Source: a virus
Reading direction: 5' to 3' (one strand)
DNA: 64,000 nt
Virus record (IMG/VR): IMGVR_UViG_3300031951_000028
The position numbers and the translations under genes were made by a program. Shown here one piece after another: positions 1-17,166 of the stretch. The notes beneath the pieces are model-generated. The model ran no database searches. It saw only the letters and a list, made by a program, of their open reading frames with translations, and was not told the origin of the DNA. Positions within the stretch are counted from its first letter, which is position 1, and each line of letters begins with the position of its first letter.

Positions 1-908
<908 letters not shown>

Positions 909-6924: not shown

Positions 6925-8994
6925 CTATCGTCTAACTCTACCATAGAAATCTGGAGACATGTCTGTTAATGGCCCAGAAGCATATAATTTTTGATTCTTG
7001 TTAATAGGTTTATGAGATTGTGATCCAGATAAGAATCCAAGGATATTGTATGCTGGGGGAGCTATAGTAATTCTACCAGTAGTTCTTGCTCCCATATTGG
7101 CCATAACTAATGAACTATATCTATCTTTTCTCATTCTAGCTTTTTTACCAGTACCAACTTTAGTTTCTGGAGTGTCCCATCTTTCAGAGCCCGTGGGGGT
7201 TTTTGTATGAACTATACTTGCTAACTCAGATTTAAGTTCTTCTATTTCAAACATACAATCTTCAAGAGTATCATATAAACCTATTTTTTCTTCAATATCT
7301 CCATATTTGATACCTGAATCTTCTATCTTCTTCTTATCTTCTTGATGAGCAATAGCTAAGGTTACACTATCAAACTCAGGAAATAATAATAATTTTTGTT
7401 CAAAATCATATTTTAAACCATGATTTGCTTCTTGAACCCATTTTTGATTTACGAACTGGCACATAGTTAAAATATGCAAACCAGGTAAATCATCTGTTAT
7501 TTTTGGGTCTTCTTCATCAATTACTGGATAAATAGGCATAGACCCATCTCTTGGGGTAGCTAATGCCTGTTCTAAAGTACGGCCACCACCCTGCGCGTCC
7601 ATGTAAATACCAACACAGGGAAATACACTCATTAAATCTCTTATTTTCTGGACACAATACTGGAAATAATCATTTTCCTTAACTATCCCAGCTAGCACTT
7701 TCTGCTGATGCTTTTTTCTATTAATTGTCCAGCAATTAACAATTCTTGTGTGGTCTTCATGCAGTTCCAATACCGTGATCGCCATGTTATCAACTTCGGA
7801 TGCAGGATCGACACCAAAAACATACTTTAAATTTTTGTCACCAGCTATTTTAGCGGTATATATAATTTTTTTACCATTTATTGTAATACTATTTTTATGA
7901 CTTGCTACACAAGACCTTATTAAACTACTTCTAATAAAACCTGCAGAATCTTTGCTAAATACTGCTCCATACTCTCTATTATATGAGTCTGATGTCATGC
8001 TAGCTTTAGCTCTAGCAACTGTGCTGGCATCCATGATACCTGCTGGTATTAATTCATAAGGTATTCTTATAATAGAATAATCTTTCCAATTAAGTTTATG
8101 AATCTCTTCGTCACCCATTATACCTTCTAATTTTTTAACATCTCCACGGCTTTCTATAATACTTTTATAGACTTTCCAGTATCTAGCAAAATGCTCAAAA
8201 TCATAAGTACATGTTCCTGAAAGTATGGATTGGTTTCCGCCTTTAGAAGAAAAATTTTCTTCCATTTCTGCAGTCCAAGTACCTTCTTTTATCATATAAT
8301 CTCTTTTAAAGAACAAATTCATGTTCTCTATAGGATTTTTGGCTACGGCGCCGAAACCTGAAATAACAACTTCATATATTTCTGGATTAACTGACCCGAA
8401 TTCGTCCATGATAACTGTGTGTGCTCTTAAGCCTCTAATAGTTTGGCCATCTCCAACGGGAACGAAATGAGCTTCACTTTTCCCTATAAAGAAAGAGCAT
8501 TTATCTTGGAATGTATGTGGTCCGTCATTCCTGCCACATGTTGATCTATATACATCGCCCGCATCCCACATTTTATTAGCTTCTTGGAATACGAATTTTG
8601 ATTGTCTGTATGCCGCGCCGCAAACAACTATCTTAGAGCCTGGAACGAGCCTAAGCTTTAACATTACATAAAGAGCTAACAAAAAGGTTTTGCTGAAACC
8701 TCTACTGCCAATCAACATTGGGAACGGTCTTTTCCATAATTCTTCTAACACTAGTGCCTGCATTGGTGATAGAGTAATATTAAATAATATTTTTGCGGCC
8801 CACCATAGATAGTTAGATGTCGACATCAATCTGACAACATCATATGCAGGGATCTTACTAGTTTTTATATCTAATGGGTTAAAAGCTTTTGAAGCTGCTA
8901 TGAGTTGATTAGAATTAAGTCTTGTGTAGGCAAAATCCTTCATATCATATATTTCATTAGCTATTTTGAGGATTTTCTTATCCATTCTATCCAC
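6925..8994 (-). CDS. terL: Terminase large subunit
   Basis: Walker A GSRGFSKT, IRGLRA, Walker B VIMDE, RNase-H nuclease FGVDPA, C-terminal KDRYS. Confidence 0.9.
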   Translation of the reverse strand: MDRMDKKILKIANEIYDMKDFAYTRLNSNQLIAASKAFNPLDIKTSKIPAYDVVRLMSTSNYLWWAAKILFNITLSPMQALVLEELWKRPFPMLIGSRGFSKTFLLALYVMLKLRLVPGSKIVVCGAAYRQSKFVFQEANKMWDAGDVYRSTCGRNDGPHTFQDKCSFFIGKSEAHFVPVGDGQTIRGLRAHTVIMDEFGSVNPEIYEVVISGFGAVAKNPIENMNLFFKRDYMIKEGTWTAEMEENFSSKGGNQSILSGTCTYDFEHFARYWKVYKSIIESRGDVKKLEGIMGDEEIHKLNWKDYSIIRIPYELIPAGIMDASTVARAKASMTSDSYNREYGAVFSKDSAGFIRSSLIRSCVASHKNSITINGKKIIYTAKIAGDKNLKYVFGVDPASEVDNMAITVLELHEDHTRIVNCWTINRKKHQQKVLAGIVKENDYFQYCVQKIRDLMSVFPCVGIYMDAQGGGRTLEQALATPRDGSMPIYPVIDEEDPKITDDLPGLHILTMCQFVNQKWVQEANHGLKYDFEQKLLLFPEFDSVTLAIAHQEDKKKIEDSGIKYGDIEEKIGLYDTLEDCMFEIEELKSELASIVHTKTPTGSERWDTPETKVGTGKKARMRKDRYSSLVMANMGARTTGRITIAPPAYNILGFLSGSQSHKPINKNQKLYASGPLTDMSPDFYGRVRR

Positions 8995-11398: not shown

Positions 11399-11950
11399 TT
11401 ACTGGTCACTATCATTATAGAGCGCGCGGACCGTTTCTATAAACTCAGTTTTATCTTTATCATTTATATACTCGTCAGCTTGCCAAGCTATCCATACACG
11501 GCGCATGCGCGCGTCCAGCTTGTGCTCTACTATTTCTATTATCTCATTTAGCTCCATGTTTTGGCTATCATAAACTAATAAAGAGCGATCCACGTGCTCA
11601 AAGTCATCATCTCTGTGGCTCACAATTATTGGAACTGCGCGCTTAACTGCTTTTTTAGCCTCTTGCCTCTTAATCCACGCCTCGCGCTTCTCGGGCTCGT
11701 TTTCGGGCGGCATATCAGCCCGCGACATATTATCGCGCTTAAAGTTTACGAGCCGGTTGTATACATGCCGCCAGATAAAGGTTTTTAATGAGCTTTTATC
11801 TTTGTCGTACCTTTCTAGCCCGTCCAAGATGATTATGGCAATTTCCTGTGATATATCGTCCGAGTCGTGGATATCGAACGCGAAGGTATAGGCAAACTTC
11901 GCGCAAATTTCCTTGTGCAACTCGCTAAATTCCTGCTCAGTTAACTTCAT
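11399..11950 (-). CDS. Sigma-70-family RNA polymerase sigma factor
   Basis: Region 2 signature DDISQE...LERYD...LKTFI...NRL.NFKRD. Confidence 0.75.
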   Translation of the reverse strand: MKLTEQEFSELHKEICAKFAYTFAFDIHDSDDISQEIAIIILDGLERYDKDKSSLKTFIWRHVYNRLVNFKRDNMSRADMPPENEPEKREAWIKRQEAKKAVKRAVPIIVSHRDDDFEHVDRSLLVYDSQNMELNEIIEIVEHKLDARMRRVWIAWQADEYINDKDKTEFIETVRALYNDSDQ

Positions 11951-12030
11951 AAATTTAAATTATTAAAAATTGACTAAAAAAACCGCTTATATATTAATAT
12001 ACCACGCGCCAGCTATTTTTTATATTATTT

Positions 12031-12477
12031 TTATATTTTTTTCCTAAAATAATAACAAAAAGGTTGGAGGCCCCACTTTTCTTGTGGAATATACAGCTCG
12101 TAACCGCATCTGATCAGGTTATTGGCGCTAGCTATATTTTCTGGACTAACATAAGTTACAATTGTGTGGACATTTTGTAAGCGGGCAAACTTTTCTCTCG
12201 CTTTTATAAAGCGTTGTTGGAGGCCTTGACCTCTAAAATCTTTTTTAACTACTGATCTAGCAAGGAATGCCCAGCCTGGGATCCAAATACTTAAGCAGGT
12301 AGCGCCAACTAATTTATTATTGTCTGTATCGAATGCTCCCCACCAATATGCAGTACTTTTATTATTAATTTTTGAATAAGGCGCATCTAACGGTAATACT
12401 TCTAGTTCGAGCGCCAAAATGCTTTCAAGGTTCTTTTCGGAACGTGGAAGTTTTCGTATACTAATGTGAGTAGACAT
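12031..12477 (-). CDS. GNAT acetyltransferase
   Basis: V..DFRGQGL motif A; N.AS.NNL..CGY. Confidence 0.85.
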   Translation of the reverse strand: MSTHISIRKLPRSEKNLESILALELEVLPLDAPYSKINNKSTAYWWGAFDTDNNKLVGATCLSIWIPGWAFLARSVVKKDFRGQGLQQRFIKAREKFARLQNVHTIVTYVSPENIASANNLIRCGYELYIPQEKWGLQPFCYYFRKKI

Positions 12478-12657
12478 AAAAGAACTTCATAGTTAGTAAA
12501 AGTATATGATAGATATTATACACCGGGGGAAGGAAGATAGTATAATAGCGTTTGTTAGCCTTTACAACTCTATGAGTTTCTGTGAGTTTTCGCGCGCACC
12601 ACCCCCGCCTGCGGCACTATGTCGCACCCTACCGGGGGAGGGAATTAAAATGGGGTC

Positions 12658-12762
12658 GGCGGTCGGCGGTCGGCGGTCGGCGGTCGGCGGTCGGCGGTCG
12701 GCGGTCGGCGGTCGGCGGTCGGCGGTCGGCGGTCGGCGGTCGGCGGTCGGCGGTCGGCGGTC
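12658..12762. repeat. (GGCGGTC)x15 perfect heptamer tandem repeat
   Basis: 105 bp of exact 7-mer units at the AT-rich to GC-rich transition. Confidence 0.95.
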
Positions 12763-13052
12763 CAGTCTCATTTCCAAAGTGTCCAGTAAGTTTCTCAAAA
12801 CTTTTTTTCTCGCGTTTTTCCCGTAAAAAGTGGGCAAAACAAAATAAAATTTTTTTTCCTTTACTTTTGGCGGCCACAAACCGATATAATACTTCACCGG
12901 GACAGCAAACCGGCCACACGGGAAACGTGTGGTAAAGCTCTTTGAAAATCTGGCGAATAACTAACCGCGTGTAACGGTTACACGTGGTCACAATCCGGCG
13001 ACATATCGCCAGCCCGGATTGTAGACAATGGCGATAATTGGAGAGAATTATC

Positions 13053-13583
13053 ATGTCGAATAAGCAAACAACTCTGTCGAAAATCCGCGAAACCGCTGCT
13101 GATTATGCCGCTGATTTTGAGGCTTTCAAGCGGTTGATGGAAGCTCAAGCTGACTGCGTGAAAGGGTTGATAGGTGAAGACGATGGTCGTGCAAGGTGGC
13201 TGAAAATCCTTGAAAACGATTTCGACGTTGACCGATTTTCACGGATTGGGACGTTTTACAATGCTCTGTGCGGCGGGGAAGACTTCCCCGGCTGGGTTAA
13301 CTGTTATCTGGAGAAGGTGAACCCTGATTACAGGAAAGATTTCAAGGATATTATTCCTGAAGCCTTCAGCGAAGCCTTGAAGCTCTGGGTTACTGAACTT
13401 TGCAGGATTCTCCCGCAGGGAATGAAGCGGAAGAAGGATATCACAGGCAAAAAGCCCCCTCTTCCTGTGAAGTTCGGACAATATTTCAGTGCGGTGCTGA
13501 AAACCTGTGTCGAAGAATTTGGCTGGGCCGACTCAGAGGCAGCTTCTGGAGAACATATCGAAAGCGAAAAGTGGGATATCTAA
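13053..13583 (+). CDS. Hypothetical protein (GC-rich codon usage)
   Basis: GGAGAG Shine-Dalgarno before ATG 13053; terminator follows. Confidence 0.75.
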   Translation: MSNKQTTLSKIRETAADYAADFEAFKRLMEAQADCVKGLIGEDDGRARWLKILENDFDVDRFSRIGTFYNALCGGEDFPGWVNCYLEKVNPDYRKDFKDIIPEAFSEALKLWVTELCRILPQGMKRKKDITGKKPPLPVKFGQYFSAVLKTCVEEFGWADSEAASGEHIESEKWDI

Positions 13584-13602
13584 CCCACTTCGACAGCCAA
13601 CC

Positions 13603-13635
13603 AGCCCATCGGCTAACCAGCCGGTGGGCTTTTTT
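13603..13635 (+). terminator. Intrinsic terminator
   Basis: AGCCCATCGGCT-AACC-AGCCGGTGGGCT followed by TTTTT. Confidence 0.85.
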
Positions 13636-14115
13636 CGTGCCCCTCGCCCGGAGGGGCTTTCCTGGCCGCCCACAGCCGGCTGTCAGGCCCAACAAACGCT
13701 TCTAATTAGGCGGAGGCGACCTTGATGAAAGGTCTCCGCCCCGGCCGAGCGTAGCGAGGCCGCTCTTCGCTGGCGCGCGAAGCATATCGCCAGCGGTCGA
13801 GCGAAGCGAGTCCTTTCCTCTTAGTCCTAGCGCAGGCCCCTTGAGGGGCCGAGCACAGCGAAGCGGGGGGTAGGCGCAGCCCCCGAGGGGGCGAGTATGC
13901 GACCAATGTGAGCGGGGCCGCTGGCGCGCAAGCACATCGAAGCGATCGATAGATCGCGTAGATACGTGCTTGCACATCGCCAGCGCTACGCGTGAGCGAT
14001 AGCGAACACTAAGGAGATGAGCGGCAGCGAATCTCCCTAGGCCTCGTCAGAGGCCGCGTATCGCCGCGCGCGACGGCGCGCATAAGCGATACGTCTTCGC
14101 TGGCGCGGCGCGATA

Positions 14116-14155
14116 GCAAGCGGCATGCCAGGGCTTTGACTGGCATGACGTTTGC
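14116..14155. promoter_or_regulatory. Inverted pair of sigma54 -24/-12 motifs forming a hairpin (copy 1)
   Basis: Plus strand TGGCATGACGTTTGC; minus strand TGGCATGCCGCTTGCT; both GG-N10-GC. Confidence 0.55.
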
Positions 14156-14208
14156 CGCGCCATATAGCCAGCGCTTCCGAGGCTTTGCGAGGGCAGTTGA
14201 TACAAACC

Positions 14209-14469
14209 GCGCAGGCCCCTTGAGGGGCCGAGCACAGCGAAGCGGGGGGTAGGCGCAGCCCCCGAGGGGGCGAGCATGCGACTTTGGAGCGGGGGGCGCA
14301 GGCCCCTTGAGGGGCCGAGCACAGCGAAGCGGGGGGTAGGCGCAGCCCCCGAGGGGGCGAGCATGCGACTTTGGAGCGGGGGGCGCAGGCCCCTTGAGGG
14401 GCCGAGCACAGCGAAGCGGGGGGTAGGCGCAGCCCCCGAGGGGGCGAGCATGCGACTTTGGAGCGGGGG
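14209..14469. repeat. Three tandem 87-bp palindrome-containing repeats (fourth partial copy at 13830-13903)
   Basis: Units start at 14209, 14296, 14383; each has GGCCCCTTGAGGGGCC, GCGAAGC and GCCCCCGAGGGGGC. Confidence 0.95.
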
Positions 14470-14486
14470 GCTGGCGCGGCGCGATA

Positions 14487-14526
14487 GCAAGCGGCATGCC
14501 AGGGCTTTGACTGGCATGACGTTTGC
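14487..14526. promoter_or_regulatory. Inverted pair of sigma54 -24/-12 motifs forming a hairpin (copy 2)
   Basis: Identical to 14116-14155. Confidence 0.55.
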
Positions 14527-14592
14527 AGCGCCATATAGCCAGCTCGTGCGAGGTTTTGCGAGCTCAGTTTTGTTTTTTTAACGGCTAGAGAT

Positions 14593-14615
14593 AAAAAAAG
14601 GAGCCTTTCGGCTCC
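14593..14615 (-). terminator. Intrinsic terminator of the 15091-14621 gene
   Basis: Minus strand GGAGCC-GAAA-GGCTCC followed by T7. Confidence 0.8.
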
Positions 14616-14620
14616 ACGGA

Positions 14621-15091
14621 CTAGTTGAAGCAGCCGAAAGTTTCGACTAACTGCACCATCCAGCCGCTTTCCCCATAGGTTCCGATGCAGCTGATGGCGT
14701 CTTTGGTAAAGACCCATTTGCCGCCGAACTGGGCGTCAGTCCGAACTGCGATAAGGCAGCGGCGGACTGGGATGTTGTGGACGCGGAGTTCCGCGTTTAG
14801 GAACTTGTCTTTCCGCGTGATGCGAACAGCCACTGCGGCTCCGCTAGGGGCAAGAAGGGGTTGGGAGCCTGCATCAAAGGAGACCATTTGGTCAGGCTCC
14901 AGCATACAAAGCACCCTAGGAACGGCAGACGTCCACTCCTCGGCGTTTTCTTGGTCTGCAGGACCCTGACTGACGCGGAAGTCAGACTCTTTTAGGACAG
15001 TCCGGCCCGTAATCAGGGCGTCGGAGGGGATGAAGCACCCTGTTTCTTGGCGTTCCGCAGCTTCCGTAACTCTACCATTTTTCCGTTTCAT
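14621..15091 (-). CDS. Hypothetical 156-aa protein (intact arm of the inverted duplication)
   Basis: AGGAGAG SD before ATG 15091, open frame, terminator downstream. Confidence 0.55.
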   Translation of the reverse strand: MKRKNGRVTEAAERQETGCFIPSDALITGRTVLKESDFRVSQGPADQENAEEWTSAVPRVLCMLEPDQMVSFDAGSQPLLAPSGAAVAVRITRKDKFLNAELRVHNIPVRRCLIAVRTDAQFGGKWVFTKDAISCIGTYGESGWMVQLVETFGCFN

Positions 15092-15357
15092 AAGCTCTCT
15101 CCTAGCAAGTGGGTCGAGAAGTTCGACCCTTCGCGGAAAAGGCGGACGATAGAGTATGAACAATAAAAAAATGCGTGCGAGGCTTTGCGAGCACTCATCT
15201 AGACCGTTACAAGTGTAAGTGGAGAGCGGAAAAAAATGCAAAATTTAAAAAAATTTGAGCTTTGACAAATTTTTTTAGTTATCTAATCGCCACTGTGTAG
15301 TTAAATCGCAGCCTAATTTTGTATTTTTTTAGCTTGCGGCCGCTCGTAACGGGTAAG

Positions 15358-15930
15358 CCGCCTAGCGAGGGTCGAACTTCTCGACACACTTGCGACCAAA
15401 GGAGAGAGCGTAATGAAACGAGAAAAATGGCAGAGTTACGGAAGCTTGTATTGCGGAACGACAAGAAACGGGGTGATTCAGACCCGGAGACCAATGCGTT
15501 ACGGGACGGACTGTCTTAAAAGAGGATGGCTTTCGCGTCACAAAAGGGTCTGGCAGAGCAAGAAAGCGTCGAGGAGTGGGCGTTTGCCGTTTCTAGGGTG
15601 TTTTGTATGTTGGAGCCCGACCAAATGGTATCATTTGATACAGGGGCCCGACGCCTTATTGTCACTAGTGGAGACGTAGTGGTTGTTCGCGTCACGTGGA
15701 AAGGCGAGTTTTTAAACGCGGGACTACGTGTCCACAATATTCCAGTCTGCCGCTGTCTTATCGCTGTTCGGAGTGGCTCCTAGTTTGGCGGCGAATTGGT
15801 CTTTGCCGAAGACGTTATCAGTTGTATCGGAACCGCCGGGGAAAGCGGCTGGATGGTACAGTTAGTCGAAACTTTCGGCTGCTTCAACTAGTCCGTTGAG
15901 ACGAAAGGATCCTTATTTTAGCTCTGGCCG
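15358..15930 (+). pseudogene. Degenerate inverted copy of the 14582-15145 gene unit (fold-back arm)
   Basis: About 84% identity over the gap-free core, 5' frameshifts, in-frame TAG at 15781, broken terminator stem. Confidence 0.8.
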
Positions 15931-16028
15931 CTTCTTCGCTGGCGTGGTGCGGTAGCACCATATAGCCAGCGTGTGCGAGCTTTGCGAGCTCCATTTTAAT
16001 GTCACGGTTAAAGTTCGCATCTAAATGC

Positions 16029-16170
16029 TTCAGCGGCCGCAAATAGAACGGTGCGAGGCTTTGCGAGCACTCGTTCAGGCCGCAGCGGCCGTAAGCGGCC
16101 AGCGACGACCCCCTGGAGGGGGTCTAGCATCGGGGGTGTTGCGTGCCTGTAGTCCGAGGCTTTGCGAGGA
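16029..16170. repeat. ~140-bp structured element, copy 1
   Basis: Direct repeat of 23310-23455: GAACGGTGCGAGGCTTTGCGAGCACTCGTTC...GACCCCCTGGA(TA)GGGGGTCTAGCAT. Confidence 0.85.
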
Positions 16171-16291
16171 TTACAGAACAGCACGCCGCTTGGCAAGGAC
16201 GCACGCTGCAGGAACGTCAGAGAAGCGGTGAAAGACGTCCCGCAGCGTTCCTTTTGCTGCTAAAGTGCGGCCAGGGTCTCGGTTGAGACAG

Positions 16292-16322
16292 AAAAAAAGG
16301 AGAATGTTTCCACTCTCCCTTT
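16292..16322 (-). terminator. Terminator ending the minus-strand early cluster
   Basis: Minus strand GGAGAGTG-GAAA-CATTCTCC followed by T7. Confidence 0.7.
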
Positions 16323-16329
16323 ATTTTAT

Positions 16330-16488
16330 TTAATAATCTTCTGGATGAGGAACTTCTGGTCCCGTATACGCTGGATTCTTAACCCATACATCATATGGTG
16401 TTAATATCCATGGTTGTTCTTTTCTTTCTTCAGCTACATTAGCTGCGAATTCTCGCATAGCATCTTGTTCTGTAGCCATTTCATCCAT
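16330..16488 (-). CDS. Small hypothetical protein
   Basis: AGGAGAG SD before MDEMATEQ; WILTPYDVW..NP.Y.GP..PHPE C-terminus. Confidence 0.65.
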   Translation of the reverse strand: MDEMATEQDAMREFAANVAEERKEQPWILTPYDVWVKNPAYTGPEVPHPEDY

Positions 16489-16501
16489 TTTCTCTCTCCT
16501 G

Positions 16502-16729
16502 TTAATATGTTTCCTTAATGAAATCAATGATTTTATCCACACTGTAATCCCAGAAGTATCCAGTCCTTCCTTCTGGGGGATTCAGTTCTTGAATTTCAAA
16601 ATACTCCGCAGTTCGGTGCATCTTGAATTTGATTCCTTTATACTCAATATTGGCAATGTGCATATCACCATGTTCATCTGGTAATACATCTTCTACTGCC
16701 GCAATCCAAATGTTGTCGTTTTGAAACAT
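16502..16729 (-). CDS. Small hypothetical protein
   Basis: AGGAGAGAG SD; ORF track. Confidence 0.65.
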   Translation of the reverse strand: MFQNDNIWIAAVEDVLPDEHGDMHIANIEYKGIKFKMHRTAEYFEIQELNPPEGRTGYFWDYSVDKIIDFIKETY

Positions 16730-16738
16730 TTCTCTCTC

Positions 16739-16936
16739 CTATTGATAAATCTCTCTGAACTGCCTTACAAACCACGGCTCTTTAATAAGAGCAAAGATAC
16801 CAGCAATATTATAATGAAATGTCACAAGATCACCAGTTGTTTTGTGGTACATCTCTACTGGCGACTCTCCATTAAGCATAATGACTACTTCATGCCCATG
16901 CAACCAAAAACTGCAGAAGAATGTAAAATTCTCCAT
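16739..16936 (-). CDS. Small hypothetical protein
   Basis: Purine-rich SD; packed with neighbouring genes. Confidence 0.55.
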   Translation of the reverse strand: MENFTFFCSFWLHGHEVVIMLNGESPVEMYHKTTGDLVTFHYNIAGIFALIKEPWFVRQFREIYQ

Positions 16937-17166
16937 CTTTTTCTCTCTTCTATTTTATTTACCAAAACCACCCATCAAATAACCAATATACAACTTGTCC
17001 TGTTGCATATCCTGCATGAGCACTAAACAACCACATAGTTAATATGTTTATTCCTTTGTCCACTGGGCAATGTCTTGGTTTTTTCCACTCTTGTTCACTC
17101 AAATACTGAGCAAATTCAATAAACTCATCCATGAGTTTCTCCTAGTGATAAAATTGATTCTCTGCT

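Follow-up and report, generated by a model that had tools for sequence, protein, structure and literature searches.

A 64,000-nucleotide stretch of viral DNA (IMG/VR record IMGVR_UViG_3300031951_000028; the whole stretch is referred to as the window) contains a giant fold-back at 14582–15930, in which a complete minus-strand gene for a 156-aa protein faces a degenerate inverted copy of itself. The phenomenon is robust and unusual. Judging from sequence comparisons, the segment may be an old fold-back of the plus strand, i.e., of the strand antisense to the gene, that has been maintained by selection. The reading we consider most likely, albeit tentatively, is pairing at the RNA level: the gene's antisense would pair with the sense-like transcript of the copy, controlling expression of the 156-aa protein.

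The original prediction had placed inverted copies at 14582–15145 and 15358–15930 and had them cover the Shine–Dalgarno site, the open reading frame (ORF), and the terminator of the gene, which was confirmed by a gapped alignment of arm 1 (in gene sense) to arm 2 (plus strand; 558 positions, 84.4% identity, 21 gap columns). A repeat search returned a gap-free core of 386 nt (14582–14967 versus 15545–15930; 84% complementarity), which is extended to 15130/15368 by four shorter collinear segments. The fold spans 1349 nt with 558 aligned pairs, the longest identical runs between the arms measure only 23–40 bp, and no other long inverted repeat was found in the 64-kb window. Arm 1 (14582–15145, minus strand) comprises the complete expression unit of the gene, that is, a 54-nt leader, the Shine–Dalgarno site, the intact ORF (14621–15091 in the ORF list), and an intrinsic terminator identified by a terminator scan (14592–14615, minus strand; GGAGCC-GAAA-GGCTCC followed by a T7 run). 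This architecture is kept in the related loci L001–L008. Arm 2 (15358–15930, plus strand) is a non-coding mirror copy. Its alignments show a preserved Shine–Dalgarno site and ATG (15413), together with a +1 insertion after codon 3, a 6-nt insertion, a second +1 insertion, a diverged patch of approximately 20 nt, a TAG at 15781–15783 (the new stop codon noted beforehand), and a disabled terminator (15896–15922), whose stem and T-run are broken in all lineages. The leaders of gene (15111–15129) and copy (15369–15387) each hold a perfect 7-bp palindrome, GGGTCGA-N5-TCGACCC, that is swapped for GGCCAAA-N5-TTTGGCC in L007; it could be an operator or a covarying RNA stem-loop.

The spacer between the arms (15146–15357, 212 nt), delimited by alignment and a consensus fold, is better conserved than the arms and mostly palindromic itself. 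Its apex is a hairpin in the consensus fold (15247–15276; A7TTTG / AGCTTTGA loop / CAAAT7), which covaries in L006 (TTTG/CAAA to TTCG/CGAA), and positions 15230–15246 pair with 15315–15330 via one G.T. The consensus fold reaches −24.5 kcal/mol on the plus strand versus −17.4 kcal/mol on the minus strand, and the spacer's mismatches (G.T/G.A) and covariation fall on the plus strand. An inserted 48-nt module (approximately 15165–15212; GCTTTG / GAGGCTTTGCGA loop) is present in the window and L003/4 but missing in L001 and L006; its minus strand has the form of a hairpin with a T-run, located between apex and gene. Because the spacer is itself palindromic, the locus looks like a palindromic duplication about a short hairpin that was later decorated with modules.

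The differences between the arms are strongly biased. From gene to copy, transitions in the window amount to 26 C>T and 15 A>G versus 3 T>C and 3 G>A (binomial p = 2e-7), and transversions to 19 C>A, 7 T>G, and 5 C>G versus 3 G>T, 1 A>C, and no G>C. When the plus strand is folded, the 87 mismatches comprise 41 G.T, 26 G.A, 5 G.G, 6 A.C, 4 C.T, 4 A.A, and 1 T.T, so that G takes part in 72 of them; the same positions on the minus strand become A.C, C.T, and C.C. The strand of the mRNA sense pairs with 84% Watson–Crick, 1% G.U, and 15% mismatched positions. Counts given in the original prediction for a gap-free core of about 335 bp were closely reproduced in the coding part of the core (14621–14967, 347 nt): 56 differences instead of about 54, 35 G.T-forming versus 4 opposite transitions instead of about 34 versus about 4, and 13 of 17 instead of about 12 of 16 transversions giving G.A or G.G. 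The even spread over codon positions 1, 2, and 3 also held (25, 22, and 30 differences). Folding each strand, as had been proposed, favored the plus strand with RNA parameters (−984 versus −814 kcal/mol, a difference of 170) and with DNA parameters (−559 versus −463 kcal/mol, a difference of 95). In all five lineages tested, the plus-strand fold was 21–30% more stable, the minus strand being weaker by 161–235 kcal/mol.

The one-strand bias is real and recurs independently in six lineages, with G.U-type versus A.C-type differences of 41:6 in the window, 51:7 in L008, 43:7 in L001, 55:12 in L003, 56:4 in L006, and 23:2 in the partially covered L007; binomial tests of the bias comprised the five lineages other than L008. 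Several simpler causes were considered and rejected. Genome-wide mutation pressure is contradicted by the 4-fold degenerate sites of the sense strand, which have a GC skew of −0.11 and −0.19 and a G+C content of only 16–27%. As these sites are G-poor and AT-rich, a free-running pseudogene should drift toward A/T at the expense of G, yet G increases in the copy (A>G versus G>A of 15:3 in the window, 24:3 in L008, and 19:3 in L006). Relaxed codon usage in the copy does not apply, as the three codon positions do not differ in rate: 22–24% of gene Cs read T in the copy at each position, and 11–18% of As read G. A regional or transcription-linked strand bias is at odds with the gene arm, whose own, mostly synonymous substitutions split 17 versus 11 in plus-strand terms rather than 4:1. 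Ongoing hypermutation is contradicted by the identity of the copy in six assemblies of the same phage, and a single process of cytosine loss on the plus strand by polarized A>G changes being about as frequent as C>T in both arms. Spontaneous deamination of single-stranded DNA (ssDNA) as sole cause disagrees with the A>G/C>T ratio of approximately 0.6, since deamination is far slower for adenine than for cytosine. The right flank of the fold is too conserved, with too few substitutions, for a neutral spectrum from unpaired DNA. Since neutral composition, codon position, and the gene's own substitutions fail to explain the bias, we infer selective constraint on the plus strand as its best reading.

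Homologs of the 156-aa protein were found on metagenome contigs with 94, 92, 84, 59, and 56% identity (n = 5), which together with the window gives six lineages, all of them metagenomic. These contigs are syntenic pieces of related phages, and every contig reaching far enough upstream carries an inverted degenerate copy that is 78–85% identical to its own gene. In an identity matrix, each copy is closest to its own gene (78–83%), whereas identity between copies of different lineages is 51–73%, apart from the closely related window and L001 (87%); the genes are 61–92% identical to each other. The duplication is shown by these comparisons to be older than the split of at least five lineages. Copy-specific indels are common to the window, L001, and L003, and mostly to L006, whereas L007 (partial coverage) lacks the +1 insertion. 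Because these conserved indels, the frameshift, and the dead terminator persist, the copy can be regarded as old and never fully homogenized with the gene.

The arms co-evolve in the relatives, so that one of the outcomes named in the original prediction as refuting it did not occur. Comparing the window with L006, 177 of 558 pair positions have changed on both sides, of which 150 are still paired in both lineages, and only 21 have changed in the gene arm alone. As the two lineages have just 7 unchanged mismatches in common, their biases are largely independent replicates. Over four lineages, 206 of 558 pair positions underwent compensated double changes, and 91.4% of the alignment cells are Watson–Crick or G.U, a value that dropped to approximately 40% in a scripted control with the partner slid by 1–3 columns. 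Several single mismatches occur at the same position in all lineages beside covarying sites, and pairing of the helix's outermost 60 bp is nearly complete in all lineages despite their different sequences. The gene itself has a dN/dS of 0.09–0.25, with dS from 0.34 to beyond saturation (>1.5), by which measure it is genuinely coding and under purifying selection. With dN/dS low and dS saturated, complementarity has therefore persisted while synonymous sites turned over completely. Change in the copy is less than half as fast as synonymous change, as seen from copy-to-copy distances of 13% versus a proportion of synonymous differences (pS) of 27% between the window and L001, and of 45% versus saturated dS between the window and L006. 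Its best-conserved part comprises the leader, the Shine–Dalgarno site, and the start codon.

An assembly artefact or chance similarity is practically out of the question, as identical unitigs occur across studies and six diverged lineages share the architecture. A 1265-bp unitig over 14624–15888 is identical in runs from different studies, and the fold-back stretch is present in fourteen studies. In five other assemblies, 14575–15937 is found with 100% identity; four hold the 1363 bp whole, and the contig of the fifth ends after 1320 bp.

Changes were further polarized by parsimony on three branches. For 29 of the 44 gene-arm changes, the partner position in the copy has changed as well, in 27 cases identically. 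The mirrored fraction hardly depends on the type of change (A.C-type 7/9, G.U-type 11/16, transversions 11/16), so that mirroring is blind to type and reaches approximately 70% of the substitutions in the gene. Mirrored changes are scattered singly or in pairs instead of forming long tracts. Their spectrum is symmetric, unlike that of copy-only changes (Fisher p = 0.006), and resembles the gene substitutions, which implies information flow from gene to copy. Copy-only changes starting from Watson–Crick pairs, in contrast, led to G.U in 27 cases (17 C>T and 10 A>G) and to A.C in 7 (p = 8e-4). In quasipalindromes, template switching in its intrastrand form lets the 5′ arm template the 3′ arm, which is type-blind and yields apparently simultaneous compensatory substitutions (PMC8794818). 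Given the type-blind mirroring, replication template switching or short-patch conversion would fit as the copying process, and this is a DNA-level process that needs no selection at each pair. Regarding the interpretation put forward in the original prediction, strand-specific constraint stands, and mismatch bias and arm co-evolution were borne out, whereas much of the complementarity is kept by a type-blind copying that had not been foreseen.

These observations can be combined into a model of RNA pairing. Replication template switching or short-patch conversion would transfer gene changes to the copy, and selection would remove most new mismatches while passing those that pair or nearly pair on the plus strand (G.U/G.T, G.A, and G.G). 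In a cis form, the product would be a G.U-rich hairpin RNA of approximately 1.35 kb; in a trans form, the copy would titrate antisense RNA as a target mimic. In both forms, the pairing would determine when the 156-aa protein is produced. With arms at approximately 83% identity and few long identical runs, the DNA palindrome would plausibly be shielded from recombination and cleavage, while RNA pairing would survive by wobble. The original prediction had favored a gene rebuilt from ssDNA and offered G.U-rich double-stranded RNA (dsRNA) as the alternative; we consider dsRNA at least as likely.

Possible promoters for such an RNA lie in the flanking R module (14470–14581, plus strand), a hairpin recognized by pattern search and conservation, both arms of which contain a sigma-54-like TGGCAT-N5-TTGC. 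A pattern search found this motif four times in the window versus 0.17 expected, always within R hairpins (14116–14155 and 14487–14526; 2176–2215 in L006), each arm of which reads as a sigma-54 −24/−12 promoter and which are conserved in all related loci. The plus-strand motif at 14512–14526 is aimed into arm 1. Its distance to arm 1 is 54–56 nt in the window, L001, and L008, and 184–317 nt in L003 and L006. L006 has an extra R hairpin inside the spacer with motifs pointing at both gene and copy, and this spacer motif is a better match to the consensus (TGGCAC-N5-TTGCA). Furthermore, the sole plus-strand ORF of the surrounding GC-rich island (13053–13583; 176 aa), which belongs to no known family, shows conservation: a homolog is 57% identical, and the ORF occurs on 19 contigs, which makes plus-strand transcription of part of the island likely. 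Together, the sigma-54-like motif and the conserved ORF render plus-strand transcription plausible. Adjoining the island, a 183-aa protein with a sigma-70 region 2 domain match (11399–11950, minus strand) is probably a phage-encoded sigma factor and could read promoters invisible to a sigma-70 scan.

Several points weigh against RNA pairing. A terminator scan identified a terminator-like hairpin plus T-run (14541–14580, plus strand) between the sigma-54-like motif and arm 1. Immediately ahead of arm 1, four of five lineages carry such a plus-strand hairpin with a conserved T-run, and this element is the main sequence-level argument against a read-through plus-strand RNA. A sigma-70-type scan found no site able to drive the gene and recognized no promoter in the stem, although the host promoter type may differ; the single match in the arms is a weak plus-strand site in arm 2 (15635–15662), and two sites per 3 kb correspond to chance level. 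No RNA run holding the stretch is listed among public runs. The one RNA-Seq-labelled run that came up holds a fraction of 0.07 of the sampled words and is probably DNA from a relative. G.U-type changes are mirrored about as often as A.C-type changes, so that much of the compensation appears mechanical and not due to selection on single pairs, and the outgroup used for polarization is saturated. The pooled excess of G.A over C.U mismatches (41 versus 3) would be expected from the stabilities of DNA mismatches or from a simple pressure to lose C and gain G, but not from RNA thermodynamics. Six lineages are, moreover, a small sample, and we know of no function for a 560-bp dsRNA in a bacterium.

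Some of these points are better accommodated if the plus strand folds as ssDNA, either as a structural or entry signal or as a rebuilt duplex of promoter, gene, and terminator that is transcribable while single-stranded. Frpo and the template-strand hairpin promoters of N4 are models for transcription from folded ssDNA, and the plus strand is indeed the template strand of the 156-aa gene and of all neighboring minus-strand genes. The dominance of G in the mismatches agrees with the known ranking of DNA mismatches by stability, the energy asymmetry is as large with DNA as with RNA parameters, the palindromic spacer would make the region upstream of the gene double-stranded as well, and the terminator-like element before arm 1 disfavors a read-through RNA. 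GCGNAGC, a very stable DNA mini-hairpin motif (PMC13037366), occurs in 13369–14844 12 times on the plus strand (13369–14433) versus twice on the minus strand (13985–13991 and 14838–14844). Nevertheless, we regard the ssDNA fold as unlikely. The phage packages double-stranded DNA (dsDNA) by means of a large terminase and has no known ssDNA stage, no promoter was recognized in the stem, and a hairpin of 1.35 kb needs long-lived ssDNA free of single-stranded DNA-binding protein. If the origin lies at the skew minimum at 23–24 kb, a leftward fork would expose the minus strand as lagging template. The other possibility is that no single-strand pairing is selected at all, and that passive template switching or conversion acts together with compositional selection or a local strand-specific mutation process. 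The copy would then persist for other reasons, e.g., as a transcribed decoy of the 5′ region of the mRNA or as part of a DNA-level palindrome, and a drift toward losing C and gaining G would reflect the composition of an untranslated plus-strand RNA, for instance one avoiding C-rich Rho entry sites. In line with this, the five enriched classes (C>T, C>A, C>G, A>G, and T>G) are all C-loss or G-gain and the five depleted classes all the reverse, the plus-strand GC skew is positive throughout the island, mirroring of gene changes is blind to type, and the leader, Shine–Dalgarno site, and start codon are the parts of the copy that are conserved best. Selection on plus-strand RNA composition could thus contribute to the bias, and it is inseparable from tolerance of G-containing mismatches with the present data. 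As a full account, we give it little credence: divergence between copies accrues at under half the pace of synonymous change, the outermost 60 bp stay nearly perfectly paired in every lineage despite sequence differences, spacer and R hairpins covary as hairpins, A>G against a strong AT pressure is no known mutational outcome, and no such bias is present in the gene arm, which is transcribed as well.

In another reading, the copy would be a silent cassette from which the gene is switched or diversified by recombination, as in Borrelia vls and Neisseria pilS, or the inverted homologs would let a promoter be inverted, as in Campylobacter fetus sap. The head-to-head layout in a GC-rich, GC-skewed island of an AT-rich genome resembles the vls locus, and a frameshifted copy is expected from such a cassette. 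Six assemblies from different samples (the window and five others), however, are 100% identical over the covered stretch, no inversion junction was found in the contigs, the spectrum shows flow from gene to copy, the gene is under purifying and not diversifying selection, and the strand asymmetry is left unexplained. We therefore consider this reading very improbable and already largely refuted. A small chance is reserved for an explanation not yet thought of. RNA-level pairing remains the reading we prefer.

Regarding the product of the gene, no relative of the 156-aa protein was found in Pfam, PHROG, PADLOC, or PDB, the ESM Atlas gave no lead, and scans of viral contigs returned no relative of the gene. 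An AlphaFold2 model from five sequences was uninformative (pLDDT 34). An exhaustive HMMER search returned its own family, ORF fragments derived from the copy, and weak matches to Ig-like/RCC1 repeats that were deemed uninformative. In Rfam 15, nothing in 12000–17000 reached the gathering score, with only sub-threshold chance matches.

The replicon is a terminase-packaged dsDNA phage. It is a large, AT-rich phage from fresh water (approximately 30% G+C; genome of at least 149 kb) and encodes a large terminase (6925–8994), a capsid cement protein, minor capsid proteins, NAMPT, an RNA ligase, and six tRNAs. The terminase is only approximately 25% identical to those of Bacillus phages, and 50,697 GenBank phage records contained no DNA match to the fold-back region or the first 12 kb. 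An ORF running off the window edge (3–908, minus strand) matches an Mtd_N domain followed by collagen repeats. Mtd_N is the N-terminal domain of the major tropism determinant known from the diversity-generating retroelement (DGR) of a Bordetella phage, and a DGR may lie beyond the window. The GC-skew minimum is near 23–24 kb.

The fold-back sits in a GC-rich island (50–63% G+C, approximately 12.5–16.3 kb) that is packed with direct repeats and hairpin modules. A bidirectional terminator (16295–16322, both strands; terminator scan) forms its right boundary. The plus-strand GC skew is positive in every island segment, from +0.03 (arm 1) to +0.19, with +0.10 to +0.17 in unpaired segments. Between 13830 and 14471, 87-bp tandem units and 371-bp R-containing units were observed. 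The spacing from ORF 13053 to the 156-aa gene ranges from 1197 to 1568 bp across assemblies of an otherwise identical phage, so that either the repeat copy number varies or the repeats collapse in assembly. Direct repeats, the R/R′ modules, stand on either side of the fold on the plus strand. The short R′ module follows arm 2 in direct orientation (15933–15997, plus strand), as identified by direct-repeat families and right-flank alignment; its stem covaries (GTGGTGC/GCACCAT versus GCGGCGC/GCGCCAT), and it ends in a weak terminator-like hairpin (15977–15991). In the R hairpins flanking the fold, G.T/G.A mismatches and covariation are again borne by the plus strand. The structured non-coding right flank (16029–16290) is approximately 95% identical between the window, L008, and L003, compared to only 81% for the adjacent protein-coding gene, and therefore ranks among the most constrained sequences of the locus.

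We compared the fold-back to known systems in which an imperfect inverted repeat is at work. It resembles integron attC sites and the single-stranded promoters Frpo and ssi of the F plasmid, which act on one strand, tolerate mismatches there, and keep their structure while the sequence drifts. Tolerance of mismatches on the functional strand only, as in Frpo and ssi, is also seen here (G.T versus A.C of 41:6, and 23:2 to 56:4 in the relatives). Those elements, however, are non-coding, measure 60–330 nt, and reside on DNA with a demonstrated single-stranded stage (conjugation, IntI excision), whereas the fold-back measures approximately 1350 nt, has a complete functional gene as one arm, and belongs to a dsDNA phage. 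Integron attC sites in particular comprise approximately 57–141 nt with R″/L″–L′/R′ boxes, far below the 1349 nt spanned here. A Pfam scan of 26 window ORFs, from 64 kb of a genome that measures at least 149 kb, revealed no integrase, and no relaxase or conjugation context was seen around the fold-back. A second likeness is to hairpin-RNA loci, such as Drosophila hairpin RNAs and young plant MIRNA genes, and to engineered G:U hairpin transgenes. There, an inverted coding duplicate gives rise to long dsRNA, and C>T/A>G changes in one arm keep G.U pairing of the RNA while making the DNA repeat imperfect. Hairpin-RNA loci act via Dicer and Argonaute, which bacteria lack, and both of their arms are non-coding and away from the target; in the fold-back, the functional gene itself is one arm.

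Correction of quasipalindromes by template switching, known from the work of Ripley, of Lovett, and of Monttinen and Loytynoja (2022; PMC8794818), leaves the signature that we observed. It accounts for the mirroring but not for the 4–7-fold strand bias of the residual mismatches, and, being a maintenance mechanism, it gives no reason for a phage genome to retain a 570-bp non-coding arm. Control of a message by a non-coding RNA that resembles or pairs with part of it is also known from RNA sponges, target mimics, and fold-back inhibition (prophage anti-sRNAs such as AgvB, the fold-back inhibition element of hok mRNA, and protection from outside transcription in IS10), some of them phage-encoded. 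They pair over 10–100 nt, whereas the fold-back is gene-length, and fold-back inhibition pairs on the mRNA strand, which pairs poorly here. Cis-antisense RNAs and type I toxin–antitoxin systems differ in that their RNA is complementary to the mRNA strand, whereas here the preserved pairing is on the opposite strand. Coding palindromes in Nematomorpha mitochondria are perfect and intragenic, with both arms encoding protein (PMC6649704). Like the fold-back, they are long inverted repeats with coding sequence that are kept over evolution; in the fold-back, one arm is non-coding, and the arms differ by 17% with strand-biased differences. The template and variable repeats of DGRs are characterized by differences confined to adenines, a hypervariable repeat, and a nearby reverse transcriptase, and the fold-back does not share these features: its differences affect all four bases, with C changed most often, its repeats are inverted and comprise the whole gene, its sequence does not vary among the window and the five further assemblies over the stretch that they cover, and no reverse transcriptase was found among the window ORFs scanned. 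A literature search found no description of a gene-length, covariation-supported hairpin with a functional gene as one arm.

It is a possible, if doubtful, conclusion that the locus is a phage element of a new kind: an intact gene would pair over its whole length with its non-coding mirror in a single hairpin of approximately 620 bp, which would be read as structure on the template strand of the gene. The gene might then be expressed or controlled from a single-stranded intermediate, or a long G.U-rich dsRNA might act in phage–host conflict. If the constraint on the plus strand is real, this would be the longest covariation-supported nucleic-acid helix known to us in a phage or bacterium, and the first one with a functional protein-coding gene as an arm. 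The finding bears on the survival of long inverted repeats in bacterial DNA, here at approximately 83% identity and with few long identical runs, on how template switching and selection share the maintenance of a helix, and on the use of long dsRNA or ssDNA hairpins by bacteria and phages for gene control or counter-defense. The GC-rich island, full of plus-strand-specific hairpin modules, shows stronger conservation than the coding genes, which suggests that structured nucleic acids form a wider, so far undescribed layer in these widespread freshwater phages.

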